Shown: one piece after another, positions 30,873-44,821 of the stretch | How positions within the stretch are numbered: the first letter of the stretch is position 1 | How the letters are laid out: each line of letters starts with the position of its first letter | Source: Ignavibacteria bacterium UBA7675 | GTDB taxonomy: Bacteria; Bacteroidota; Ignavibacteria; Kapaibacteriales; UB7675 | Direction of reading: 5' to 3' | NCBI GenBank assembly: GCA_002483085.1 | Contig: DLHF01000046.1 | Location: 5,313 to 69,312, forward strand | DNA: 64,000 nt | The notes under the pieces: model-generated | Seen by the model: only the letters and a program-made list of their open reading frames with translations | Databases searched by the model: none | What the model was told of the DNA's origin: nothing | Program-made: the position numbers and the translations under genes

Positions 30873-32360
30873 ATGAATTTTCTAAAACAAGTTATTAACC
30901 TATTAGACAAATACGAACAGAAATTAGAGTTTTTCGACGAGGCTGATCTTGCGAATACAACCTTCCACAAGCTATATGACGGTGTAAAATCAGGCAAATA
31001 CTCAACCGATGAAGAAGCCTGCGGCGACATCTACCAGCTTGAAGCACCGGATGCACGCTATCGCAATCTTAAATCGCGCCTAAAGAAAAAGTTAGCGGGA
31101 AATCTTTTCTTTCTAAGAATTGAACAGCCGGAACATTCGGAATACCTCTCCACAGTTCATGACATATTCCATCAAGTTTACATATTACATACCCTTGGTA
31201 GTTTAGGGGCATCCGTGGCAGCTAATGAGGTTGCCGAACAGATTTTTGCAAAGGCACAAAAGTTCCACCTAACCAATGCCGCTGTGGATAGCCTTCTGAC
31301 ACTTCGCAAGCGTGGAGCCTATCACGGTCAGTCAAAGGAATATCTACGCTACAGCGAATTACTCGACTACTATATTAGAGTACAAAGTGCCGAGATAAAA
31401 GCATCAAGCTATATAGAATCGATTAACATAATATTCACAAATACTAAATCTGATTCTCCCGGTATTATAGAACAATTAGAACATGCTGTCAGCGAAGTCT
31501 CTAATTTGTCAGATGAATACAAATCTCATTTCTTATTTCTCACTCATTACCGACTAAGCATTTACCTAAGCCAACTTAAAAAAGACAGTCTATTAGCACT
31601 GCAAGTATGTAATACTATAGATGAGTTCTATCACAAGTACCCTCATTTAGTAACTACGACCAGGATAGGTGAAATTGCTCTTGACAAAACCATGGCATAT
31701 TTCTATTTACGCCGCTATCGAGAGGGCGTTGAATATGCAAGACCCTATCTGCCAATATTTCGGGAAGGCGGGAATACATGGTTCACATTTAGAGAAACAT
31801 TCTGCTGGCTTCTAATCCATGGACAATGTTATACCGAGGCTCGCGAAGTTTACGAGGGGACAACTACTCACATCAGCTTCGACACTGGCATTGCCCATCG
31901 CAAAGAAACATGGCAAATCTTTGGCTTGTATCTCGCCTTTGTCGAAGGTGCAGAAACACCGGACATGGACAAGTTCATGAAAGACATGGAGGTGTACCGC
32001 GCCGACAAAAGTGGAGCCTATGTCACCGTGCTGGCTCTGAGCATTCTCGTTCTACTCCGCAAAGGCGACTACGACAGTATTATTACCCGCGATGAATACC
32101 TTAAAAAATACCTCACACGCTATCTGCGGGGTGAGGATCACGCACGTGGTGCTGCATTCTTCAAACTGCTGCGCCTTCTCGCAAAAAACGACTTTAGCTT
32201 GGATGCTGTAAAGAAGTACGGAGAGAAACACATTGCCGTGCTGTACGACGCTTCGCTCCCGCTCGACGACTACGAGGTAATGCCCTACGAACGCATGTGG
32301 GAATATGTCGTAGAGACGTTGACCGGCTCTGCGGGAACGGCTCTTCGCAGCATTAGCTAA
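30873..32360 (+). CDS. hypothetical all-alpha protein (495 aa), AT-rich orphan gene
   Basis: Long ORF in a locally ~40% GC stretch. No motifs I can assign. Helix-rich composition with Y/F/L periodicity suggestive of TPR-like packing (tentative). Confidence 0.55.
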   Translation: MNFLKQVINLLDKYEQKLEFFDEADLANTTFHKLYDGVKSGKYSTDEEACGDIYQLEAPDARYRNLKSRLKKKLAGNLFFLRIEQPEHSEYLSTVHDIFHQVYILHTLGSLGASVAANEVAEQIFAKAQKFHLTNAAVDSLLTLRKRGAYHGQSKEYLRYSELLDYYIRVQSAEIKASSYIESINIIFTNTKSDSPGIIEQLEHAVSEVSNLSDEYKSHFLFLTHYRLSIYLSQLKKDSLLALQVCNTIDEFYHKYPHLVTTTRIGEIALDKTMAYFYLRRYREGVEYARPYLPIFREGGNTWFTFRETFCWLLIHGQCYTEAREVYEGTTTHISFDTGIAHRKETWQIFGLYLAFVEGAETPDMDKFMKDMEVYRADKSGAYVTVLALSILVLLRKGDYDSIITRDEYLKKYLTRYLRGEDHARGAAFFKLLRLLAKNDFSLDAVKKYGEKHIAVLYDASLPLDDYEVMPYERMWEYVVETLTGSAGTALRSIS

Positions 32361-32483
32361 ACCGCCCCAACAACGGAAGTTTGCAGCATCCGCAGCACAG
32401 CAGAATATATGTTGCGGATTATTCGGTGTTCCTGTTTATTTTCCCTCTTGCTCCCAAGCACAGACTAATCGATGGAGGGAAAC

Positions 32484-34634
32484 ATGCTCACCAGCAACTT
32501 GTTTCGCAGTATCTACTGCATGGCGTTATGTACCATGCTGGCCGTATCTCTTCTGGCACAAACTGTCCCCGACAGCCGGGGGCGGGAATTTTACTTTACA
32601 TTCCCCCCCAACTTCCACGAAAACAACAATCGGGACAGCTTGTTTATTTTCATTGCAGCAGCACAGCCTACAACTGGAAATATAGCCTATCGCAATAGCA
32701 GCGGTACACGAATAAACCGTGTATTTACCATCAGCGACGTATCCAAAGTTTATTCTTTCGCTGTATCCTATCGCAATATCGAACTCGGCAGTGCATTCAA
32801 CAACACGGGCAGCAACCAGAACGGGAAAGTAGCGCCGCAGTCGTTCCATGTTACAGCCGATCAGGATATCGCCGTGTATGCGCTCAGCTACAGCAACAGA
32901 ACAAGCGATGCCATGATGGTGCTACCTACCGATGTGCTCGGCACGGAATATATGGTACTCGCCTACAACAGCGATGGACTCGACAAAGAGCCAACACCCT
33001 CGCAGCTCGCTGTGGTTGCTCCAGAAGATAATACCGATGTTGTTATCACCCCTTCCACTCGCGTGCTCAATGGCTCTATGGCGCCGATCAGCATTCGCCT
33101 GAACAGCGGAGACTCCTACCTGCTACAAGCCGACGTATCGCAGGCAGCTCCCTACAATGATCTTACAGGATCAACAATCAGCACGACTAAACCTGTAGCG
33201 GTGTTCGCCGGGCATCAGCGCACTGTTGTGCCAGTACGCTCATCCGCGCTCATTTCCCGCGACTATCTTTTAGAGCAGCTCCCGCCTGTGCAAGCGTGGG
33301 GACGACGGCATATACTTACGCCCTTTCCCCTTCCCGCAGGAATCCCCGCCACTGAAAATGATCTGTACCGCGTGCTTGCAGCACACGACAATACAGCAGT
33401 AGCGGTAAATGGCACACAACTCGTTGTCCTACGCGCAGGCGAGATTTATGAAGCCCCTCTGCGAACCGCAGCCGTAGTAGAAGCAAATATGGAAGTACTC
33501 GTAGCACAGTATAAACGCTCTTCAAGCCAGCAGAGCACGGACCTCCGGATCAGCGATCCGTTTATGCTCGTCGTGCCGCCGGTGCGACAATACTTGTCGT
33601 CGTATCTCTGCATCAACGCACAGAACTACGACGGTGGGAAAGTGTATCAGCAGCAGTATCTCACCATCATCTGCCCCGCTTCGTTTGTACACACTGTCAC
33701 ACTCGATGGCCAAGCAGTCGATCCCAACCGTTTCCTGCCGGTGCCTACGTCCTGCTATTCCTATGCGATTATTCCAGTACAGGACGGAGTGCACAAAGTA
33801 GAGGCTGCTACTGAAATTGGTATTTATATCTATGGCTATGGGCAGGCTGATTCTTATGGCTATGTGGGTGGAATGGCTTTTAGAAAACACCTCGGTGAAG
33901 GTGGAAATATTGCTTTTACAATGGCTCCCAGCTTCGTACATGCGTCGCCGGGCGATACGATTGCACTCGATATTCACGCCAGCAGCCTTGAATGGCAGGA
34001 TATGGCAGCAGTTTCATTTTCGATGGAACTCGCGTATAAATTTTCGTGGATGACCTACGCAGGAACGTTCACACGCGGGAATGTGCTCGACGATACGTGG
34101 TCGATAGAAGTACAGGAAACGGAAGGCGATGCGCCCGGAACGAAAAAAACTACCATTGTCGCCAGCGGCAGCACACCAGTAGCACAGGACGGAACCATTG
34201 CTACCATCCGCATGCTGCTTTTCATGAATACCGATACAGTGTACACGCCTTCGTTATCAGCATCGGTCAATGGCGATATTAACTGCGTAAAAACAACAGC
34301 AGCATCGCTACATATCGGCCTTTCGCAATGCGTTATCAATCTCAGCCCCATCCACTACTCCGGCAGTGGTTATGGGCTCGGGCAGGTGGCAAATGCCAGT
34401 GCATCCACAGGTGTACTTCGCCTGCGCTACAGCGTGGGCATTGAAGCCGAAACTCGCATCGAACTCTTCAACAGCCTCGGCGAGCGAATAAGCACACTTG
34501 TCGATACCGTAAAACCGCCGGGTGCATACGAGCAAGAAGCAGATGTCTCGCAATACGGAGCAGGTGCTTATTTTATCAGAATGGTATCGGGGCCCTACAG
34601 CCACACCCTGCCGATAGTATTGGGATCCAGATAA
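32484..34634 (+). CDS. T9SS cargo protein, paralogue 3: shared N-terminal domain and C-region, no Cys-Ig repeats, T9SS C-terminal sorting domain
   Basis: GGAGGGAaacATG at 32484 with signal peptide MLTSNLFRSIYCMALCTMLAVSLLAQT. Motifs DSRGREFYFTFPPNFH, DAMMVLPTDVLGTEY, AGHQRTVVPV, YGYGQADSYGYVGGMAF. Tail IELFNSLGE...GAYFIRMVSGPYSHTLPIVLG. Confidence 0.8.
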   Translation: MLTSNLFRSIYCMALCTMLAVSLLAQTVPDSRGREFYFTFPPNFHENNNRDSLFIFIAAAQPTTGNIAYRNSSGTRINRVFTISDVSKVYSFAVSYRNIELGSAFNNTGSNQNGKVAPQSFHVTADQDIAVYALSYSNRTSDAMMVLPTDVLGTEYMVLAYNSDGLDKEPTPSQLAVVAPEDNTDVVITPSTRVLNGSMAPISIRLNSGDSYLLQADVSQAAPYNDLTGSTISTTKPVAVFAGHQRTVVPVRSSALISRDYLLEQLPPVQAWGRRHILTPFPLPAGIPATENDLYRVLAAHDNTAVAVNGTQLVVLRAGEIYEAPLRTAAVVEANMEVLVAQYKRSSSQQSTDLRISDPFMLVVPPVRQYLSSYLCINAQNYDGGKVYQQQYLTIICPASFVHTVTLDGQAVDPNRFLPVPTSCYSYAIIPVQDGVHKVEAATEIGIYIYGYGQADSYGYVGGMAFRKHLGEGGNIAFTMAPSFVHASPGDTIALDIHASSLEWQDMAAVSFSMELAYKFSWMTYAGTFTRGNVLDDTWSIEVQETEGDAPGTKKTTIVASGSTPVAQDGTIATIRMLLFMNTDTVYTPSLSASVNGDINCVKTTAASLHIGLSQCVINLSPIHYSGSGYGLGQVANASASTGVLRLRYSVGIEAETRIELFNSLGERISTLVDTVKPPGAYEQEADVSQYGAGAYFIRMVSGPYSHTLPIVLGSR

Positions 34635-34782: not shown

Positions 34783-35193
34783 CTATTTTACAAAATAGAG
34801 ATCAGCATCGGTGTCTTTGTCTTCTTTGTAATCGTATAGTAACACACGAAATGTTAGCTTCTCGTCGGTAAGCGTGCGAACCTCGCATGAATCACCGTCT
34901 ATGACCAGTGTCCTATCGCCATTGGTCAGTTGCCATACCGTAGTTCCAATCGTAGTCCCTTCTTTTTTGGACTCTGCCCTACCATCGCTGTGAAAAGTCA
35001 CGGCGTCTATTCCAATAACGTCGCTCGCATCTTCCCCACTTACGGCTCGTAGTGCCCGCTGAAACGTCCACGAATGAGAAAGCAGAATATCCCGACGTGT
35101 TTTCTGGGTTGCAACAGGGTCGTCTGAGCAACTGGCAAACAGGAACGACACGGCCAACAGTACAATCAGGATAAGTGCCGGTTTGTTTTTCAT
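34783..35193 (-). CDS. lipocalin-like domain lipoprotein (paralogue a)
   Basis: Lipoprotein signal MKNKPALILIVLLAVSFLFASCSDD. Lipocalin_4-like LLSHSWTFQRAL...WQLTNGDRTLVIDGDSCEVRTLTDEKLTF. Confidence 0.65.
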   Translation of the reverse strand: MKNKPALILIVLLAVSFLFASCSDDPVATQKTRRDILLSHSWTFQRALRAVSGEDASDVIGIDAVTFHSDGRAESKKEGTTIGTTVWQLTNGDRTLVIDGDSCEVRTLTDEKLTFRVLLYDYKEDKDTDADLYFVK

Positions 35194-35372
35194 AGCATAC
35201 TGCCCGATAATGAGGAGATAATTGGATGATAGATTGTGGATGAGATTCCAAGTTAGAGAATTTCGCTATCTGATACAATACCACTACAGCTTCATAAGTG
35301 AAGTGCGGTTTAAAATGACAGCGGTGCGCCACAAGAGCACACCGCCATCGAATCTACTGCGCTACAAGGAGA

Positions 35373-35798
35373 CTACTTGTACGTAAGGTCGACGGGATAT
35401 GTCACCGTTTGATATTCGATGTTCGCCTTGCCCTTGAATTCACTTTCGCTCAGAGAAACGATAGTCACAACAAATTCATCGCTCGTCCCTTGGTCAAAGA
35501 CAATCTGTGTATCGTTGGAAGCGAGTGCCCAAGTAGATTCGAACGAGCCTTCGCTGCCTTCTATCTGCGCAGTGCCGTCGCTGCTGAATTTAATCTTCTT
35601 CATATACGATTCTATAATCGTTTTTACATCCACACCCATCGAGGTCGCAGTTTTCAGCTCCCACGTTTTGAGCAGAAGAAGCTCTTTTCTCGATTTATTC
35701 CCCGAAGCGGGATTGTCGTCGTCTTTGGAGCAACCTACGAGCAGCGACAAGCTGGCTATAACAACAAGAACGAGTGGAAGTACATAGCGTCGATTCAT
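35373..35798 (-). CDS. lipoprotein with lipocalin-like architecture (paralogue b, diverged)
   Basis: Internal start MNRRYVLPLVLVVIASLSLLVGCSKDD. LLLLKTWELKTATS...TWALASNDTQIVFD...EFVVTIVSLSESEFK. Confidence 0.55.
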   Translation of the reverse strand: MNRRYVLPLVLVVIASLSLLVGCSKDDDNPASGNKSRKELLLLKTWELKTATSMGVDVKTIIESYMKKIKFSSDGTAQIEGSEGSFESTWALASNDTQIVFDQGTSDEFVVTIVSLSESEFKGKANIEYQTVTYPVDLTYK

Positions 35799-35916
35799 AC
35801 CTTTACACCATACAGAGGTTTTACAACACGATTGCCGCAAGATACAAACTGATTAGCAGTTTTCATATGGATGAAGCAATTGACAGTTTCCGGCGCAGAG
35901 GAGCAGAGTTAATGTG

Positions 35917-36309
35917 CTACTTCACAAAAAACAGGTCCCTATCACCTTCTTTGTCTGGTACGCGCAATGTCATCTTCTCGTCCGTAAGCGTGCGAATTCC
36001 GCACGAATCGCTTTGTATAATCACCGTTTTATCGCCATCGACCAGTTGCCAGCCAGTGGTTCTGACCTCATCACCTTCCTTTTGGGCTTCAACTATACCA
36101 TTGGCATAGAATGTCAACACTTCTACTTCAATATCGTAAGTAACATCCTTTCCACCGGCAACTACCAGAGCTCGCTGAAACATCCAGGGGTGAGCAAGAA
36201 GCAACTCGCGACGCGTTTTCTCGGATGAGGCCGCGTCGTCGGAACAATTAGTGAACAGAAAGGATACTGCAAGCAGCACCAGCAGAACAAGAATAGGATT
36301 GCGTCTCAT
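35917..36309 (-). CDS. lipocalin-like domain lipoprotein (paralogue c, close to a)
   Basis: MRRNPILVLLVLLAVSFLFTNCSDD. LLLAHPWMFQRAL...WQLVDGDKTVIIQSDSCGIRTLTDEKMTL. About 55% identical to 34783-35193. Confidence 0.65.
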   Translation of the reverse strand: MRRNPILVLLVLLAVSFLFTNCSDDAASSEKTRRELLLAHPWMFQRALVVAGGKDVTYDIEVEVLTFYANGIVEAQKEGDEVRTTGWQLVDGDKTVIIQSDSCGIRTLTDEKMTLRVPDKEGDRDLFFVK

Positions 36310-36591
36310 GGCAGATAGTATTATAGTTAGGAAAACCGGGTTGGAGCTAAAGTTAGTAAATTTCCCTATTTACAGCAATTGCCCTGAACTGTTATCGCAT
36401 CTAAATTTTCCAGCGGCGTTTTTTCAAGAATTTCGCCACCGCGCTTTATATGCGTTTGCTCTGGCCGCTGTGCGTATGGCTATTAGTTGCAGAAGGCCAT
36501 ATCGTTGCGCCCACACACCGATGAGCACATCCTGCGGCTGAAGCTCTATGCTATTGAGTGCTTCTCTGCACAGGGCGAAGGAGGCCGGACT

Positions 36592-36651
36592 ACCACGCGG
36601 CGGACGTGCTGCGCGGTGCAGAGAACGGAGTACGCACAGCGACCGAAGCGC
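36592..36651. repeat. solo module-B repeat copy (reverse orientation)
   Basis: CCACGCGGCGGACGTGCTGCGCGGTGCAGAGAACGGAG...GCGACCGAAGCGC. Confidence 0.6.
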
Positions 36652-36733
36652 TCCTATCGCCATTGCACTGCCGACAAGGCTCTACCCGCGAGGAAAAATT
36701 TTTACCACTGCACAATGCTTTGTAATTTGCAGG

Positions 36734-36799
36734 CCGTTTCCGCGCCGCAACACGGCACTGCTTTGTTCGTCTGCACGGAAACCGGTTTTTTCTGTTTTT
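36734..36799 (+). promoter_or_regulatory. terminator/attenuator-like hairpin in the leader immediately upstream of the mutase gene, preceded by a Bacteroidota-type -7 box (TAATTTG at 36723-36729)
   Basis: CCGTTTCCG...(32 nt)...CGGAAACCGG followed by TTTTTTCTGTTTTT, 17 nt before the ATG at 36817. Confidence 0.4.
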
Positions 36800-36816
36800 A
36801 ACAGCCTGGAACATCT

Positions 36817-38826
36817 ATGCAGAACGCTTCTACAACCGACGTGACAACGCTCAACGGCCTTCGCAACGGCCATTCCAGTCCGGCTCTTACTGAATTGGAG
36901 CAGGTATATCAGGAACTTCTGGCGTATTTGCGCCCCGAAAGCCGGGAAATTCTCGACTCGTGGGAAGCAAAAAAGGCAAACTACGAGGGCGAACAGTTCA
37001 CCTACAAGGTGCGCGGCAAGGACATACACGTGCGGAACTACACAGAATCGCTCTCGCATACCCAGGTACCTAAGATTGCCGTACCGAAGTTCCGCGACTG
37101 GGGCGAAATTCTGCGCTGGGCGATGCAGGAAAACTTCCCCGGCGAGTTTCCATATACCGCTGGAGTGTACCCATTTAAGCGGCAGGGCGAAGATCCTACG
37201 CGTATGTTTGCAGGCGAAGGTGGTCCGGAGCGCACAAATCGCCGCTTCCACTACCTGTCGCACGGGATGCCCGCAGCGCGGCTTTCCACGGCATTCGACT
37301 CGGTGACACTGTACGGCGAAGACCCGGACGAGCGGCCAGACATCTACGGAAAAATCGGCAACTCGGGCGTGAGCATTGCCACGCTCGACGACGCAAAAAA
37401 GCTGTACTCAGGCTTCGACCTCTGCGCTCCTTCTACCTCGGTGTCCATGACTATCAACGGTCCGGCTCCAATGCTTCTCGCGTTTTTTATGAATGCCGCT
37501 GTGGATCAGCAATGCGAGTTGTACATTCGCCAGCACGGCATGGAAGAAGAAATTTCGGCAAAGATCGACAGAATATACCAAGAGAAGAGTCTGCCCCGCC
37601 CCTCCTACTCCGGTGAACTTCCCGAAGGCAACAATGGGCTCGGCTTGCTTCTGCTGGGCGTAACAGGCGACCAAGTGCTGCCCGCCGATGTCTACCAAGA
37701 GTGCAAAGAACGCGCTCTTACCAGCGTGCGCGGCACAGTGCAAGCAGATATTCTCAAAGAAGACCAAGCGCAGAACACCTGCATCTTCTCCACAGAATTT
37801 GCCCTGCGCATGATGGGCGACATACAGCAGTATTTTATCGAAGAAAAGGTGCGTAACTTCTACTCTGTGTCGATCTCCGGCTATCATATTGCCGAAGCGG
37901 GCGCCAACCCGATTACACAGCTCGCACTTACGCTTGCCAATGGCTTTACCTATGTAGAATACTACCTTTCGCGCGGCATGGATATTAACGACTTTGCGCC
38001 GAACCTGTCGTTCTTTTTCTCTAATGGCATCGACCCCGAGTACTCGGTGATTGGCCGCGTGGCGCGCCGCATCTGGGCTAAAGCTATCAAGAATAAATAC
38101 GGCGGCAACGAGCGCTCGCAAATGCTGAAGTACCACATCCAGACCTCGGGCAGATCGCTGCACGCGCAGGAAATCGACTTCAACGACATACGCACGACGC
38201 TGCAAGCGCTGTACGCTATTTACGACAACTGTAATTCGCTGCACACTAACGCCTACGACGAAGCGATAACAACGCCTACGGAGGAATCAGTGCGCCGCGC
38301 CGTTGCTATTCAGCTTATCATTAATCGCGAGCTCGGCCTTGCGAAAAACGAAAATCCACTCCAAGGTTCGTTTATTATCGAAGAGCTTACCGAACTCGTG
38401 GAAGACGCCGTGCTTACGGAGTTCAACCGCATAGCAGAGCGCGGAGGCGTGCTCGGCGCAATGGAACTCATGTACCAGCGCAACAAGATTCAGGAAGAAT
38501 CGCTGTACTACGAAACACTGAAGCACACAGGCGAATACCCGATCATCGGCGTGAACACCTTCCTGAGCAGCAAGGGCTCGCCTACTGTGGTGCCCAGCGA
38601 AGTAATTCGCTCCACACAAGAAGAAAAGGAACTGCAAATATCCAATGTACGCGCCTTCCAGCAGCGCAACAGCACGACAGCCGACGCGCTCAAGCAGCTA
38701 AAAGTTGTGGCAGTACAAAACGACAATATTTTTGAAGGGTTGATGGAAGCTGCAAAAGTGTGTTCGCTCGGCCAGATGACGCGCTCGCTGTACTCGGTGG
38801 GCGGGCAGTATAGAAGGAATATGTGA
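36817..38826 (+). CDS. methylmalonyl-CoA-mutase-family catalytic (substrate-binding TIM-barrel) subunit, IcmF C-terminal-half-like; no B12-binding domain
   Basis: [66 protein letters not shown], long N-terminal linker region. 669 aa, ends without a DxHxxG Rossmann domain. Confidence 0.85.
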
Positions 38827-38886
38827 CCTCGCCCAGACTCCTCTACGACACATACATACTTCAATTCTCGATCCTGAAAAGCACTT

Positions 38887-40191
38887 ATGAGCATATCAAA
38901 CCTGACCATACAAAACTTCAAGAGCATCAACCGTGTAGAGATGCAGCTTGGAGATTTTAATGTGCTCATAGGTGCTAACGCGGCAGGAAAAACAAATATC
39001 GTGCAGGCTGTGAAGTTTTTGAAGGATTGTGCGGCGGAGGGATTTGAGAATGCTTTTTCTTTACAGGGCGCTTCTAACTATTTCTTCAACTCGCGTAACA
39101 AAGCAACTCACGGTATATTTAATCTTACATTTATTCCTCTTGCTGCATATAAACGGATGTTGGGGTTCACCATAAAAGACACATCAGTATTTGGCTTGCT
39201 CCAGAATATTACCTACCAACTTCGCGTTCTACCGCAGACGGAGTCTTTACCTTATTATGTAGATATTATAACATCAGATGCTGTTTGGGACGAGTTTCCA
39301 CCTGTCAAGGAACAAGACAGCTATAGTTCCCAAATCGAGTGCCTAAAAGTATTAGAAAAACATAAACAGAATAAAGAAAAGATGGGCAAATTCCTTGCCT
39401 CTCATAATCCTAATACTGATAGACCTTTCTTTGCGGTTCAGAATCAGCAGGGAAAAACCATGCACCATATGGAGGAAATGGTAAATGAAGAATTAGGACG
39501 CAGTCTTCTCATACATAGTGACATATTTCATCTCGGTCTTTTAGGTAGACCCACAGTTGATCAATTATTAGATATTGGCATCTATAATTTTTCTATAAGC
39601 AAACTTGTGGAGGCAAACTCTCTTATTGGCCGCAAAGACCTCGAATCCGACGGCAGCAACCTCATCCTTGTCCTGAAAAATCTCATGGACAACGAGGAAA
39701 AACGCCACCAGTTCCTCCTACTGCTCGAATATGCTTTACCATTTATCAAGGATGTAAAGGTGGAGTCGATGCACGGCCAATCGCTTGTGGCTCTGCTCAC
39801 TGAAAAATACGATGAGAATTTCTCGCTGCCATCTGTCTTCTTTTCCGAAGGAACGATAAGCGTGATTGCTCTTATTATCGCGCTATTTTTTGAGAATAAA
39901 TCCGTCGTCGTCATCGAAGAACCGGAACGCTATATTCACCCTTCCCTGCTGGCAAAGCTCGTAGAACTGATGAAAGACGCCTCGCGCAACAAACAGGTAA
40001 TTATCACTACACATAGCCCAGAACTCGTCAAGCACGCAGGCATAGAGAACCTCTTGCTTGTGCAGCGCGATAAGGAAGGATTTACAACAGTGTCGCGACC
40101 AAACGACAATGAAATAGTGAAAACATTTCTGCACAATGAGATAGGGCTGGACGACTTGTACATTGACAATTTGCTTGGAGTAGAATCATGA
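38887..40191 (+). CDS. ABC/AAA_21-type ATPase (OLD/PARIS AriA-like N-terminal ATPase class)
   Basis: Walker A GANAAGKTN, Walker B VVVIEEPERYIHP, H-loop IITTHSPEL. 434 aa. Lies in a ~40% GC stretch. Confidence 0.8.
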   Translation: MSISNLTIQNFKSINRVEMQLGDFNVLIGANAAGKTNIVQAVKFLKDCAAEGFENAFSLQGASNYFFNSRNKATHGIFNLTFIPLAAYKRMLGFTIKDTSVFGLLQNITYQLRVLPQTESLPYYVDIITSDAVWDEFPPVKEQDSYSSQIECLKVLEKHKQNKEKMGKFLASHNPNTDRPFFAVQNQQGKTMHHMEEMVNEELGRSLLIHSDIFHLGLLGRPTVDQLLDIGIYNFSISKLVEANSLIGRKDLESDGSNLILVLKNLMDNEEKRHQFLLLLEYALPFIKDVKVESMHGQSLVALLTEKYDENFSLPSVFFSEGTISVIALIIALFFENKSVVVIEEPERYIHPSLLAKLVELMKDASRNKQVIITTHSPELVKHAGIENLLLVQRDKEGFTTVSRPNDNEIVKTFLHNEIGLDDLYIDNLLGVES

Positions 40192-40712
40192 GCTACAGAC
40201 CGCTTTTCCTGTTTGTAGAAGGCCTGCATGACAAGGATTTTTTCGAGCGCATTATCACCCAGAGGCTTTCCAGCTTTTATAGCCATATTACAGTCAAAAC
40301 GACATCAACAGATATTCATCAAGTAAATAAACTTGTCAAAACACTTACGCATCAGGGCAGCGATTACTGGAAAATTAACGACATTGACGAGTCGCCCTGT
40401 GTAACTCAAAAGAAAGAATCCGTTCAGAGAAAACATCCCACTATTCCAACGAACAGAATATTAATTGTGCGGATCGAGATTGAAAGCTGGTACGCTGCCG
40501 GACTCGATGCCGAAGCTCGCACAAAGCTGAAAGTGACGTTCAGCAAACCACCCGATGAAATGACAAAAGAAGATTTTGCAGCCTGTATTCCGTCACGCTA
40601 CAACAATTCCAAAATTGCTTTCATGCAGGACATCCTTCATCACTTCTCCTTCGATGAAGCCAGAACCAGAAGCACATCCTTCAACTATTGCATGAACAAA
40701 CTTGGCCTCTAA
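40188..40712 (+). CDS. small TOPRIM-like protein (DUF4276/RloB-like class, tentative), translationally coupled to the ATPase
   Basis: ATGA start/stop overlap. LFLFVEGLHDKDFF (TOPRIM Glu), NDIDE (DxD) about 58 aa later, then IEIESW acidic motif. 174 aa. Confidence 0.55.
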   Translation: MSYRPLFLFVEGLHDKDFFERIITQRLSSFYSHITVKTTSTDIHQVNKLVKTLTHQGSDYWKINDIDESPCVTQKKESVQRKHPTIPTNRILIVRIEIESWYAAGLDAEARTKLKVTFSKPPDEMTKEDFAACIPSRYNNSKIAFMQDILHHFSFDEARTRSTSFNYCMNKLGL

Positions 40713-41769
40713 CCGCTCATATCAGACTTGCGATTTCCTCATCGCCGGTGGTGGGCTGGCGGGTTCGCTGCTGGCGTGGTGTCTGCGCGAGCGCGGCGCT
40801 ACGGTGCTTCTGGCCGATTTGCCCAATCCCTCTGCCGCGTGGCGCACAGCGGGCGGCCTGCTCACACCTGTCACTGGGCGGCGCCTTGCAAAATCCTTTA
40901 TGCTCGACACGCTCCTGACCTTTGCAAAAGAGTGGTATCGCTCGATGGAACAGCAGTTCGGTGCGACTCTACTCACGGAGCTGCCCATCTTGCGCGTGTT
41001 TCGCAGTGCCGATGAACGCTCTGTATGGGAGGAGCGCCGCGCCGAACCCGGCTACAGCCAGTATATGCAGCCAGCACAGGACGCAATACCGGCGGGCGTG
41101 TATGCACCGTTTGGTACAGGCATCATGACCGGCGGCGGGCGCGTGGACCTCGTGGCCCTACTCCACTGCCTGCACAGCGTACTTCCGCTGGCAGAAACAA
41201 CAGGTGCGCCCGTGCGAGTGGAAGAACTCGACATCACCGAGAGCGGTGTGAAGTGGCGCACGATCCATGCCGAGAAACTTATATTCTGCGAAGGATGGCG
41301 CGGCGCTTACAACCCCCTGTTCAGCGCTGTCCCTATCCTGCCTTCGCATGGAGAAACACTCGTGATTCGCACGGCAGGCATCCCCGATACTTGCATCCTG
41401 AACGGCGGTGCACACGTCACTCCGCTCGGCAATGGCCTGTTCAAAGTGGGAGCTACCAATGGGTGGTCGACATTCGATGAAACGACGACACAGGACGGGC
41501 TCGCGGAGCTTCGGCACAATCTCGACAATCTGATAGGCGTGCCCTACGATATTGTCGAGCACACAGCCGGAATACGCCCGGCTATCAAGGACCGCCATCC
41601 AGTAGCGGGAATGCACCCCGTGCACAAGCGCGTGGGCATGCTCAATGGCCTCGGTAGCAAAGGCGCTCTGTACGGCCCGTGGTCGGCGTTCCACTTCGCA
41701 GATTTTCTCGTGAATGCCTCCCCCCTTCCGGCGTTCTCTATCGAACGGTTTTACTCATCCGATACCTGA
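40702..41769 (+). CDS. FAD-dependent oxidoreductase (DAO/glycine-oxidase/MnmC-oxidase-domain-like)
   Basis: N-terminal dinucleotide fold DFLIAGGGLAGSLLAWCLRERGATVLLAD. C-terminal GIRP...DRHPVAG. Only a TTG start at 40702 precedes the GxGxxG, overlapping the upstream gene by 11 nt. Confidence 0.7.
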   Translation: MASNRSYQTCDFLIAGGGLAGSLLAWCLRERGATVLLADLPNPSAAWRTAGGLLTPVTGRRLAKSFMLDTLLTFAKEWYRSMEQQFGATLLTELPILRVFRSADERSVWEERRAEPGYSQYMQPAQDAIPAGVYAPFGTGIMTGGGRVDLVALLHCLHSVLPLAETTGAPVRVEELDITESGVKWRTIHAEKLIFCEGWRGAYNPLFSAVPILPSHGETLVIRTAGIPDTCILNGGAHVTPLGNGLFKVGATNGWSTFDETTTQDGLAELRHNLDNLIGVPYDIVEHTAGIRPAIKDRHPVAGMHPVHKRVGMLNGLGSKGALYGPWSAFHFADFLVNASPLPAFSIERFYSSDT

Positions 41770-41774
41770 CCAGT

Positions 41775-42353
41775 ATGCTCAAGGCTCTGCATTTTGCACG
41801 TACACTTATCGCAAATGCCCTTCAGCCCGGCGCTCTTGCTATAGATGCAACAGCGGGCAATGGACACGACACGGAGTTTCTCGCACGATTAGTTGGTACA
41901 AACGGTATGGTGTATGCGTTCGATATTCAGGAACAGGCAGTAATCGCTACGCGCAATCGCCTGCTCAATGCCGGATTAGAACGGCAAACAATGGTTGTGC
42001 ACGATGGACACGAGCACATGCGGCATCATATAGCGCCAGAACACTGCGGGCTTATCAATGTCTGTATGTTCAACCTCGGCTATCTGCCTCGCGGCGACAA
42101 AAGCATCACCACAAAGCGGCAGACATCGCTCCAAGCGCTACAGGCTGCTACAGAACTACTCGCCCCAAATGGCATTATCACCGTTATGATCTACCCCGGC
42201 CATGCAGAAGGAACAGAAGAAGCGGCGCACATCTCGGCATGGGCACGCGAACTCCCGCAAACGCAGTACCACGTGCTGCACTACGAATTTATCAACCTGA
42301 GCAATGCCCCGCCAAGGCTTCTGGCCATCGAAAAGAATGACGTGCTTGAGTAG
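41775..42353 (+). CDS. class I SAM-dependent methyltransferase of the YtqB/MnmM type
   Basis: ALAIDATAGNGHDTEFLARLVGTNGMVYAFDIQEQA SAM-binding motif I and following. About 190 aa, typical of this family. Confidence 0.65.
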   Translation: MLKALHFARTLIANALQPGALAIDATAGNGHDTEFLARLVGTNGMVYAFDIQEQAVIATRNRLLNAGLERQTMVVHDGHEHMRHHIAPEHCGLINVCMFNLGYLPRGDKSITTKRQTSLQALQAATELLAPNGIITVMIYPGHAEGTEEAAHISAWARELPQTQYHVLHYEFINLSNAPPRLLAIEKNDVLE

Positions 42354-42420
42354 CACATTGTCCATCCTACAACGTCTTGATACGCATTCGCTCATGAGTC
42401 TTGCTGCTGCTATAGATTGT

Positions 42421-42482
42421 GGCACGGGCGTCGCTCGGGCGCCCGTCTGGTCGCTGTCACCGGTCGCACAAGCCGCTGCGTG
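42421..42482. repeat. solo module-A repeat copy (near-consensus)
   Basis: GGCACGGGCGtcgctcggCGCCCGTCTGGTCGCTGTCACCGGTCGCACAAGCCGCTGCGTG. Confidence 0.65.
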
Positions 42483-42736
42483 ATTTTTCTACCAGCAATC
42501 GCGCGGGCATACTGCCGCAGTACAACGCCGGAACAAAAGATAGCAGTAGGTAGAATGCTCCCTTCCAGCGACAGAAGCGAACATCACATCCAAAAACATT
42601 GTACAGAACAGCGTTCGCAACATCGTATCGACTGCGTAGAATGATGTTTTTTTTGCCTGTACTACTGGCGCACGATTTTCTATCTTGCATATTGAACGGA
42701 GTGCGATTTCGTTCATTTATTATCATAGGGTTCTTT

Positions 42737-44821
42737 ATGCGTTGTTTTTCTATTCGCACGCACGCTTTGTCCCTGCTGTTTTGTCTGACGGGAACCGTGT
42801 TCGCACAAGCACAATGGCAGCCTCTCAACGAGCCATTTGGCACAAATATCCAAGGTCTGTTTGAAAGTAATGGTACTGCGCTTGCTTCTTCGCCTACTGG
42901 TATTTACCGCTCCGACAACCATGGTATGAACTGGAGCCATGCGTACACAGGTAATGCATCCCCTTCATTTGCACGCATTGGCAGTCGCTTGTATGCAAGC
43001 ACATGGTCGGACATCATTGTCTCCGACAACGACGGGCAGAGCTGGGAACAGCTTCAGACCAACCTACCCGAAAGCAATGTATCTGCCCTCGCTTACGACG
43101 GTTCCACGCTCTATGCAGGTGGTTTTGGCCTCGGCATTTACTCCTCTACCGACAACGGCGCTACGTGGCAATCCAACAACGAAGGCCTACCCAACGACTA
43201 CGTTGTGTCCATCGCTGTTATCGACACGAGCGTATTTATCAACATTATCAGCAGCTTTGGCGCAGAAGACGGTGGCATATACACCCGCGAAGCTGGCGGA
43301 AACTGGATAAGGATTTCGTCGACAACCATGCATCCGTCCTTACTAAAAGCCATTGGTTCAGTTCTGTTTATCGCAGGATGGAACGAAGCATACCGCTCCG
43401 AAGACCTGGGACACACATGGATACCACTGGCTTCCCCTACAAGCCAATCCTACATAAGCTGCGTTGAATCTTCAGGCTCTCTGCTGTTTGCTGGTACGAG
43501 TGATAATGGTGTGTTCAGTTCTACAGACAACGGAGCTACATGGTCGCCTGCCGGATTAGAATTTACAGGTATTACAAGCCTTACCGCAAGCAGTTCGATG
43601 CTTATAGCAGGAACCACAAAATACGGTGCGTATATCTCACACGACAACGGTGCACACTGGGAAGCAGTCAATACGGGCATTGCCAGTACAACAACTGTTC
43701 CTGTGCTGGCGGCGGACAACAGCGGTATCTATGCAGCAGTAGAAAACTCGACGAATATATATAAAAGCAGCGATAACGGTATTTCCTGGGTAGAGCTTCC
43801 GGCGCCACACACGACATCCTCCACCATAACGGCGCTTGCAGTGGCCAACTCTACACTGCTCGCAGGTACGTCGATGGAAGGAGTGTTCAATGCGGATGTC
43901 GATGGCACGCTGTGGCAAGCGTCCACGGGAATCCCAAAAAAAATATGGGTGACAAATTTTCTCCAATCTGGCTCTCTGCTGCTTGCAGGAACTATGTCGA
44001 TGTCCTTTCCGGTTGCCCCCTACAGCGGAGCGTATATCTCGAATGATATCGGTATTACATGGACGGCAACCGACCTTCCAACTTCTGCGCTCTCTCTGGT
44101 ACAGCACAATGGCGCGCTCTATGCCGGTACAACAACCGATGTGCGCGTTTCTACCGACGGCGGTACTCACTGGGTACGGAGTAGCCCAGCAAGTATTGCT
44201 GAAAGCGAAATATACTCTCTTGCCTCCAACGGTGCTACCTTGTTCGCAGGCTCCTACAACAATGGTATTTTTATTTCGCACAACAATGGCATAACGTGGA
44301 CTCCATCTACAATGGGGCTGCCTGAGAACATACGCGTCACACGCTTTGCAGTGTATGAGCAGACAGTATTTGCAGGAACTGAAGACGGTGTTTTCAAAAC
44401 TACCGACAACGGCACAACGTGGGAATCCGTAACCGATGGAATGGAACACATTCCTGTGCAGACCATTGTGATCCAAGGAGACTATCTGTACGCAGGGACA
44501 ACCGGTGCAGCAACGTGGCGGCGACCGCTCTCAGAACTGGTGATAACATCGGTGAACGAGAGCACACCAGTGCAATCGGGCTACGAACTGTTTCCCAACC
44601 CCATGAAAACAGCAGCTACACTCCGGCTCTGCGCTTCCTGCGAACTCCATAACGCAACACTCTCTATTACTACAGTCGCTGGGCAGCACGTGCGCTCTAC
44701 TCATGGGCTGTACGGCTCCTCCATTACTATCCAGCGCGGAGAGCTTGCACCCGGAGTGTACGCCTTCACGCTCGAAGAACATGGCACTCGTCTTACTTCC
44801 GGGACTTTTGTCGTAGAATAA
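42737..44821 (+). CDS. secreted BNR/Asp-box (sortilin/Ycf48-like) repeat protein with T9SS C-terminal sorting domain
   Basis: Signal peptide MRCFSIRTHALSLLFCLTGTVFAQA. Multiple S/T-x-D-x-G-x-T-W boxes (STDNGATW, SHDNGAHW, SSDNGISW, TTDNGTTW). Tail FPNPMKTAATLRL...GVYAFTLEEHG. Confidence 0.75.
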   Translation: MRCFSIRTHALSLLFCLTGTVFAQAQWQPLNEPFGTNIQGLFESNGTALASSPTGIYRSDNHGMNWSHAYTGNASPSFARIGSRLYASTWSDIIVSDNDGQSWEQLQTNLPESNVSALAYDGSTLYAGGFGLGIYSSTDNGATWQSNNEGLPNDYVVSIAVIDTSVFINIISSFGAEDGGIYTREAGGNWIRISSTTMHPSLLKAIGSVLFIAGWNEAYRSEDLGHTWIPLASPTSQSYISCVESSGSLLFAGTSDNGVFSSTDNGATWSPAGLEFTGITSLTASSSMLIAGTTKYGAYISHDNGAHWEAVNTGIASTTTVPVLAADNSGIYAAVENSTNIYKSSDNGISWVELPAPHTTSSTITALAVANSTLLAGTSMEGVFNADVDGTLWQASTGIPKKIWVTNFLQSGSLLLAGTMSMSFPVAPYSGAYISNDIGITWTATDLPTSALSLVQHNGALYAGTTTDVRVSTDGGTHWVRSSPASIAESEIYSLASNGATLFAGSYNNGIFISHNNGITWTPSTMGLPENIRVTRFAVYEQTVFAGTEDGVFKTTDNGTTWESVTDGMEHIPVQTIVIQGDYLYAGTTGAATWRRPLSELVITSVNESTPVQSGYELFPNPMKTAATLRLCASCELHNATLSITTVAGQHVRSTHGLYGSSITIQRGELAPGVYAFTLEEHGTRLTSGTFVVE

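Follow-up and report, generated by a model that had tools for sequence, protein, structure and literature searches.

Which system does a compact pair of overlapping genes belong to, and what might it do for its host, when one gene encodes an ATPase, the other a small Toprim-like protein, and the two are lodged between housekeeping genes? This question is raised by positions 38887-40712 of a 64,000-nucleotide stretch of Ignavibacteria bacterium UBA7675 (contig DLHF01000046.1, assembly GCA_002483085.1), which was analyzed at its full length and is called the window below. An initial annotation, made from the letters of the DNA, had described the pair as a candidate defence cassette of OLD/PARIS-like logic that could not be placed in a named system. 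The data presented here indicate that the gene pair is a divergent member of the catalogued candidate system HEC-01 (PADLOC) and not a new kind of system. It is very probable that the two products are an ATP-binding cassette (ABC) ATPase and an OLD-type Toprim nuclease of the HEC-01-like type. That the pair as a whole works as a self-contained two-gene OLD-like module of HEC-01 type, with a caged nuclease and an ATPase sensor, is the probable reading, and defence against phages or mobile elements is slightly favoured as its biological role. The open reading frame (ORF) list of the window gives the following genes:

38887-40191, + strand: gene for an ABC ATPase of the SMC/Rad50-head type, HEC-01A-like, 434 amino acids (aa)
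40188-40712, + strand: gene for a predicted stand-alone OLD-type Toprim-plus-helical nuclease, HEC-01B-like, 174 aa, outside the Pfam DUF4276 thresholds
40188-40191, + strand: ATGA start/stop overlap of both genes, 4 nt, read from the sequence

The ORF coordinates, the protein sizes and the ATGA overlap are exactly as initially annotated, and all motifs quoted for the ATPase and the small protein are present. The stop codon at 40189-40191 separates the two ORFs, which thus encode two polypeptides, and the overlap predicts translational coupling of the ATPase and nuclease genes. Both proteins find their best PADLOC models in HEC-01 (Hma-embedded candidate 01), which Payne et al. described as an ABC ATPase with a TOPRIM protein sharing the metal site of the Burkholderia pseudomallei OLD protein, BpOLD (10.1101/2024.01.29.577857). 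The ATPase matches HEC-01A PDLC04178 at 2.8e-48, and in its match to PDLC04176 (HEC-01A, 5.9e-46) residues 1-431 cover model positions 1-366 of 371. The small protein matches HEC-01B PDLC04191 (7.5e-7, 27.3 bits, model positions 49-169 of 192); the same model is matched by 46 of 53 relatives, the best at 7.9e-12. A named system is therefore available for the pair, contrary to what had been supposed, and the clade of the window is a divergent one that probably lay outside the seed of the HEC-01B hidden Markov model.

The identification of the small protein as a nuclease draws on its conserved residues and on its predicted fold. An iterated search collected 56 relatives, and residue conservation was read from a 53-sequence alignment, in which the following motifs stand out:

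40218-40232, + strand: Toprim glutamate motif E11-G12-x-x-D15; E11, G12 and D15 invariant in 53 homologues; pattern counterpart of BpOLD E400/E404
40380-40388, + strand: DxD motif D65-I-D67; D65 invariant, position 67 D or N in the alignment
40476-40490, + strand: E97-I-E99-S-W101, likely metal-B ligands; E97, I98, E99 and W101 at least 90% conserved; pattern counterpart of BpOLD T506/E508
40566-40568, + strand: K127 of the helical portion, which may correspond to the catalytic K562 of BpOLD; invariant in 53 homologues

S164 and F165 are also invariant, and the motifs quoted in the initial annotation stand at residues 9 (FVEG), 65 (DID) and 96 (IEIESW). In BpOLD the two-metal site consists of E400/E404, D455/D457, T506/E508 and K562, and the purified C-terminal region of this protein is an autonomous nuclease (PMC6755086). 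E11-x3-D15, D65-x-D67, E97-x-E99 and K127 appear to mirror the BpOLD order, with residue equivalence taken from pattern, order and spacing and not from superposed coordinates. A two-metal site formed by E11, D15, D65, D67, E97 and E99, together with the invariant K127, is predicted on this basis.

The structure model of the small protein is confident (pLDDT, predicted local distance difference test, 94.6) and matches OLD-type Toprim folds, in agreement with the TOPRIM-like character initially proposed. The highest fold-comparison scores were obtained with the class 2 OLD C-terminal region (6nk8; 8.3), Thermus OLD (8.0) and GajA (7.9), and lower ones with PH0156 / DUF3226 (7.7), a small Toprim protein (7.7) and AriB (7.1). 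Foldseek places only five matches below E = 1e-3, all of them C-terminal regions of class 2 OLD proteins (template modelling scores 0.45-0.54, probability 1.00). The features of an OLD-like Toprim are found together, namely the Toprim fold, the conserved Glu, the DxD motif and a helical extension with the metal-B ligands and the Lys. About 139 of the 174 residues align to the class 2 OLD region of about 200 aa, which comprises the Toprim and helical domains. Judged by the model, the small protein is a complete nuclease module, to which the Toprim-plus-helical catalytic region of class 2 OLD corresponds in its entirety; it is not truncated, and the description of the pair as a minimal variant has to be abandoned.

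Sequence models place the small protein less closely. It has no match in Pfam even at E<=1, and it does not reach the gathering threshold of DUF4276 (PF14103). The Pfam matches of its 53 relatives are all weak and are spread over OLD-like_TOPRIM (29 relatives), DUF4276 (23, best 2.8e-7), DUF3226 (23) and DUF4435 (16). The family lies inside the OLD-like Toprim clan and outside every current Pfam model. Searched against PDB sequences, the profile of the nuclease family returned noise only (E>=0.31), and the relationship to OLD, at 12-17% sequence identity, is visible in the model at the level of the fold only and not in that profile search. In one metagenome-assembled genome (MAG; L017:8694-10086) the pair is directly followed by a fragment of a second AAA_21 ATPase, then by genes for a canonical DUF4276 protein (PF14103, 1.5e-28) and XisI, so that two different ATPase-Toprim pairs stand in tandem. 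Alignment of the family with this DUF4276 protein by hhalign gave 39.6% probability over 47 columns, in a test that is weak because this ORF is without its N-terminal part, and the E97-x-E99-x-W101 stretch is the only part aligned. A second AAA_21/AAA_15 ATPase also lies downstream of the pair in loci L020 and L021; hhalign of the family against the 158-aa partner of the second ATPase in L021 found no similarity.

The ATPase falls in the ABC superfamily (SMC/Rad50/RecF-like, AAA_21/AAA_15): Walker A, Q-loop, signature, Walker B and H-loop follow one another in order and the protein has an ABC head fold. Its conservation was assessed in 62 homologues, and the features are as follows:

38971-38997, + strand: Walker A / P-loop GANAAGKTN, residues 29-37, read from the sequence; G29, N31, A32, G34 and K35 invariant in 62 homologues
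39109-39576, + strand: beta-rich, poorly conserved insert, approximately residues 75-230; candidate sensor or partner-binding region
39844-39855, + strand: ABC signature-like SEGT, residues 320-323; S320 and G322 invariant, position 321 (D; E in the window protein) and T323 nearly invariant
39904-39927, + strand: Walker B VVVIEEPE, residues 340-347, read from the sequence; E344, E345 and P346 invariant
40006-40023, + strand: H-loop TTHSPE, residues 374-379, read from the sequence; T375 invariant, H376 nearly so

The Pfam matches, AAA_21 (1.7e-32) and AAA_15 (2.9e-22), bear out the ABC/AAA_21 type initially assigned, and the N-terminus also matches RecF, RecN and Rad50 models. By sequence, the nearest solved structures are GajA, OLD and PtuA. 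Fold comparison scored highest with the Smc head (21.3), the Retron Ec83 ATPase (20.7), PtuA (19.4) and AriA (18.7), followed by Retron Eco8 OLD (16.9), GajA (16.2) and Thermus OLD (15.2). Conservation is high at residues 1-70 and from residue 230 on, and low between about 75 and 230, where the mean top-residue frequency is 0.13-0.5, as opposed to 0.65-0.86 in the parts on either side; this insert also splits half of the tblastn matches. In the structure model the insert is built of strands at 78-137 and 166-195 and a helix at 142-160. The variable insert is likely the recognition surface.

The two genes belong together throughout the family. An exhaustive profile search yielded 1257 representatives of 50%-identity clusters at E<=1e-3, 473 of them at E<=1e-30, and anaerobic and thermophilic bacteria and archaea are the source of most. 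Small-protein relatives occur in 505 of 185,579 species (one genome each), bacterial and archaeal, and the carriers are distributed over many bacterial phyla and several archaeal orders. Neighbours, pairing and gene junctions were counted in 80 fetched loci from other genomes. All 80 have, upstream of the small-protein homologue and on the same strand, a homologue of the window ATPase, a pairing beyond chance, and the two genes are directly adjacent in nearly all; the junctions mostly measure 2, 3, -4 or 0 nt. No third gene is conserved in these loci, and the largest neighbour cluster, an ABC-transporter ATPase, is present in 11 of them. The initial reading of a split ATPase and TOPRIM pair following OLD/PARIS-like logic was right.

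The distance matrices of the ATPase and the nuclease are correlated (Mantel r = 0.71, a value reached by 0 of 2000 permutations), which argues that the pair moves and evolves as a unit. The nearest neighbour of 7 of the 18 archaeal ATPases is bacterial, and the guanine-plus-cytosine (GC) content of the pair is below that of its flanks in 68 of 70 loci, by a mean of 8.9 points. The patchy spread, the inter-domain nearest neighbours and the low GC characterize an accessory module that has spread horizontally. In a Chloroflexia MAG (L066:5255-8528) a DDE-transposase-like ORF lies on the opposite strand between the ATPase and nuclease genes, and the ATPase ORF extends to 703 aa; this arrangement is probably an insertion sequence disrupting the pair.

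How such a pair could act is suggested by PARIS, OLD and Gabija. Beside the folds, motifs, strict pairing and co-variation described above and the purifying selection described below, the formation of a complex, the trigger, the substrate (tRNA or DNA) and the defence role itself are proposed by analogy with these systems. The ATPase would hold the nuclease inactive in a complex and would sense a cue of infection, which would be a foreign protein or else an aberrant nucleic acid. The nuclease might then be licensed, by the binding or hydrolysis of ATP, to cut tRNA or DNA, and this cutting would stop the infected cell or the invader.

The surroundings of the pair in the window are of another kind. 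Upstream lies an MM_CoA_mutase/IcmF-like gene (36817-38826), and downstream, within 40702-42353, lie the gene of a DAO-family oxidoreductase with sub-threshold similarity to the flavin adenine dinucleotide domain of MnmC1 and a second gene encoding the MnmM equivalog, a tRNA U34 nm5s2U methyltransferase (232 bits vs a cut-off of 135), so that the flanking genes had been described correctly. The junction with the first of these downstream genes is itself an overlap:

40702-40712, + strand: end of the nuclease gene overlapping the TTG start of the DAO (MnmC1-like) gene, 11 nt, taken from the ORF list; the gene caller of the source agrees

The initial annotation had also pointed to an AT-rich islet. 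The contrast stands, with 42.5% GC in the pair against 51.5% in the rest of the window, 54% in the mutase gene and 60.5% in the DAO gene; the figure of about 57% given for the surrounding DNA does not hold for the window. No mobile-element signatures mark the locus. Direct and inverted repeats around the gene pair are chance-level matches of 12-24 nt, terminators and promoters around it are not in excess over shuffled sequences, no tRNA gene lies within 35 kb of the pair, and Rfam has no match in 36000-43000. When metagenome contigs were scanned with the DAO protein for mutase-DAO sites that lack the pair, only DAO genes of 30-37% identity were found, with no mutase, ATPase or nuclease gene nearby. 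A second public contig carrying the DNA of the window (L082, JGI 3300000271) has the ATPase and DAO genes split into several ORFs, and the broken ORFs are most likely due to homopolymer/indel sequencing error rather than to a pseudogene. The window holds other genes of low GC content as well. Three paralogous small lipoprotein genes (136, 155 and 130 aa; 45-49% GC) lie just upstream of the mutase gene on the - strand (34783-36309), one of them with a borderline Lipocalin_4 match, and a 495-aa ORF of 44% GC on the + strand (30873-32360), without a Pfam match, adjoins the gene of a 720-aa IgGFc_binding-domain protein (32472-34634). A genome of the Bacteroidota/Chlorobi group is suggested by a neighbour with Por_Secre_tail (T9SS) and by nearest relatives in Bacteroidales and Bacteroidetes MAGs.

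The history of the locus can be followed in a sister contig (L083), whose nuclease is 70% identical to that of the window and which also shows the overlap of the nuclease and DAO genes. Nonsynonymous (dN) and synonymous (dS) divergence was estimated by the Nei-Gojobori method between the window and this contig (L083:3-1036 for window 39681-40712):

ATPase residues 265-434: dN 0.026, dS 0.83
Nuclease: dN 0.206, dS 1.52
DAO: dN 0.158, dS 1.15
MnmM: dN 0.18, dS 0.97

The dN/dS ratio is thus about 0.03 for the C-terminal half of the ATPase and about 0.14 for the nuclease, and dS is similar to that of the flanking genes. The pair has diverged together with its flanks under purifying selection, which is stronger on the C-terminal half of the ATPase than on the housekeeping neighbours. 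Recent recombination as the source of the ATPase identity was rejected, as dS of 0.83 is close to the 0.97-1.15 of the flanks; because dS matches the flanks, the identity reflects selection and not recent transfer. The divergence is uneven along the pair. The C-terminal half of the ATPase is about 95-96% identical, and the 105 N-terminal residues of the nuclease are 64% identical (dN 0.27) and more diverged than the flanking housekeeping genes.

Several of the observations weigh against the reading of the pair as a HEC-01-type defence module. With 27 bits, the window protein matches HEC-01B weakly, and Pfam DUF4276 misses it. The HEC-01 representative examined by Payne et al. (10.1101/2024.01.29.577857) protected against no phage tested. 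On the side of defence, a cold-seep study that appeared later reports that E. coli B was protected by one HEC-01 representative from at least one of the phages T4, T5 and T7; neither representative is known to be of the window clade. Among the nearest neighbours in the 80 loci, ABC transporters, PAS sensors, peptide deformylase, methionyl-tRNA synthetase (MetRS), aminotransferases and methyltransferases predominate, as do fmt, IMPDH, flavodoxins and glutamate synthase among the second neighbours. Clusters that recur among the neighbours are those of YidC, def, fmt, rsmB, polyprenyl synthetase and NAD(P)HX dehydratase, and glmS precedes the pair in Methanotorris igneus Kol5. Defence-type neighbours are few (3 extra HEC-01A-type ATPases, 2 type II methyltransferases and 2 ResIII proteins). 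The family is almost always found among housekeeping genes, without association with defence islands, and the window, with its coenzyme A mutase and MnmC1-like/MnmM tRNA-modification genes, is itself a case in point. A tblastn search found no relative in 50,697 phage records or 72,556 plasmid records; among 2.9 million viral contigs, a pattern scan picked up a single one. Finally, the sister contig has the pair at the same site, and the dS of about 1 points to vertical inheritance in place over a long time, whereas defence genes typically turn over fast.

The initial annotation of a candidate defence cassette is consequently upheld by homology and not by context, and the housekeeping setting without a defence island, which it had named as the finding that would speak against it, is largely what the 80 loci and the sister site present. 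This setting removes guilt by association from the evidence for defence; it does not disprove defence, an inference that is plausible and for which homology is what remains. In five loci, mostly of Planctomycetota MAGs (L025, L035, L038, L054 and L067), the pair stands between a LivG/F-like ABC-transporter ATPase and def-fmt-rsmB, with YidC further upstream in some. MetRS adjoins the pair in 4 loci of other lineages; translation-related neighbours recur, but the loci are non-independent.

The same context invites the explanation that the pair has a housekeeping role in nucleic-acid metabolism, such as RNA or tRNA processing, quality control or DNA repair (compare RecF-RecR and Rad50-Mre11), and not in immunity. 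The neighbours in the 80 loci are housekeeping genes, often with a link to translation (def-fmt-rsmB in 5 loci, MetRS in 4, MnmM in the window), in two lineages the nuclease gene runs into the start of the MnmC1-like gene, purifying selection is strong and the pair has long resided at one site, the family was not found in phages or plasmids, and the similarity of the ATPase N-terminus extends to RecF, RecN and Rad50. We nevertheless regard this explanation as fairly unlikely, given a very patchy distribution (505 of 185,579 species) with inter-domain nearest neighbours, a GC content that is consistently foreign-looking, and best sequence and structure matches that are defence proteins and not RecR or RNase M5. 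The neighbour genes moreover vary by lineage, so there is no conserved functional partner. A related and unlikely alternative is that the clade forms a separate, unnamed OLD-like ATPase-Toprim branch, by now a stably inherited chromosomal module, which may act on tRNA or cellular RNA and which is coupled here to the MnmC1-like and MnmM genes. Its role would be constitutive surveillance of tRNA or translation, or a form of defence that reads the modification of wobble-U tRNAs. The tRNAs carrying mnm5s2U34 (Lys, Glu and Gln) are typical targets of anticodon nucleases. The position of the nuclease gene next to the MnmC1-like and MnmM genes could be a coincidence, as only two lineages show this adjacency.

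Quite improbable, in our view, is a selfish addiction cassette resembling a toxin-antitoxin system, in which the ATPase would restrain a nuclease toxin and loss of the pair would be harmful without any benefit to the host. The compact, overlapping two-gene format without a third gene would suit such a cassette, as would the GC content, low relative to the host in 68 of 70 loci, the single pair wedged between unrelated housekeeping genes, and the transposase-like ORF between the genes in L066, which shows that the locus can decay. The dN/dS of about 0.03 in the C-terminal half of the ATPase is tighter than expected for a mere antitoxin, however, and the family was not found on plasmids, where addiction modules are common; no member is known to be toxic, and the known relatives of the architecture, PARIS, OLD and Gabija, are phage-triggered systems. 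Highly improbable is that the pair forms part of, or is left over from, a larger named system, be it PARIS (AriAB), MADS (mad3-mad4), Menshen (NsnB with the Toprim protein NsnC), AbiL or Gabija, and the membership tests largely refute it. The ATPase does match the PADLOC models of AriA (3.2e-31), AbiLi (9.6e-28), Old (1.3e-26), mad3 (2.2e-24), NsnB (6.7e-22) and GajA (1e-19), the small protein matches mad4 (0.012), and MAD3 (NF047739) is the best NCBIfam match of the ATPase. All these matches are weaker than those to HEC-01A and HEC-01B, MAD3 with its 132 bits falls short of the cut-off of 420, DUF4435 and RloB are not matched by the window protein, and neither the window nor the 80 loci show a conserved helicase, methylase, NsnA or further mad gene next to the pair.

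The reading of the pair as a HEC-01-type module matters in a wider frame, because OLD, Gabija, PARIS and retron effectors are built on an ABC ATPase paired with a Toprim nuclease. In abundance, HEC-01-type pairs rank with the foremost candidate systems of environmental archaea and bacteria, and their activity is unsettled. To these the locus adds a clean divergent example with a high-confidence structure model and defined catalytic residues, and the family has cultured carriers in Methanotorris igneus Kol5, Halanaerobium saccharolyticum MSL 17.2 and Marinitoga sp. 1154. It also recommends caution, as the label 'defence', given by homology alone, may be premature for a clade without ties to islands or mobile elements and under strongly purifying selection. 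Of modest interest is the clade itself, chromosomal, embedded among housekeeping genes and strongly constrained, and adjoining here the genes of mnm5s2U34 tRNA modification. If tRNA is the substrate of the nuclease, as it is for AriB and OLD, the position of MnmM beside the pair gains in interest.

Among the known systems HEC-01 is the closest. The window pair shares with it the gene order, in which a small TOPRIM protein with a metal site like that of OLD comes after the ABC ATPase, as well as the best model matches for both proteins; unlike HEC-01, neither the pair nor the 80 related loci are embedded in Hma systems. PARIS, made of the AriA ABC ATPase and the AriB DUF4435 Toprim tRNase, likewise keeps ATPase and Toprim nuclease as separate, co-evolving genes. 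The two differ in the size of the nuclease (174 aa vs about 300 aa in AriB) and in its models, since the window protein has no DUF4435 (Pfam) or AriB (PADLOC) match and 12-16 of the 53 relatives have sub-threshold ones. PARIS is often carried on phage satellites, whereas the window family is chromosomal and was not found in phage or plasmid records, and its ATPase fits HEC-01A better than AriA. AriB is a tRNase, for which cleavage of tRNA-Lys(UUU) was described in the AriB paper, and according to a recent preprint P2 OLD is a tRNase as well.

Class 2 OLD of B. pseudomallei and Xanthomonas campestris (6nk8/6njv) gives the best fold match and has the same catalytic order of E..E/D, DxD, xE and K. 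OLD fuses ATPase and nuclease in one polypeptide, whereas here they are encoded by separate genes, and the UvrD-like helicase gene that accompanies class 2 OLD and Gabija is absent from the window neighbours and from the recurrent neighbours of the 80 loci. The mad3-mad4 part of MADS (AAA_21 with DUF4276) resembles the pair in joining an ATPase to a small Toprim-like partner, and the ExW motif is common to the window protein and the canonical DUF4276 protein; it differs in that MAD3 stays below its cut-off, mad4 is weak, and the flanks are mutase, DAO and MnmM genes with no other mad genes nearby. From AbiL (AbiLi with AbiLii/RloB) and Menshen (NsnABC) the pair is set apart by a small protein without RloB or NsnC match and by the lack of a conserved third gene. 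The PARIS paper grouped MADS3-4 and AbiL as ABC-ATPase-plus-Toprim systems, and the Menshen paper classed DUF4276 and RloB as Toprim nucleases; within this assembly of related two-gene architectures, the pair described here takes its place as a divergent HEC-01.

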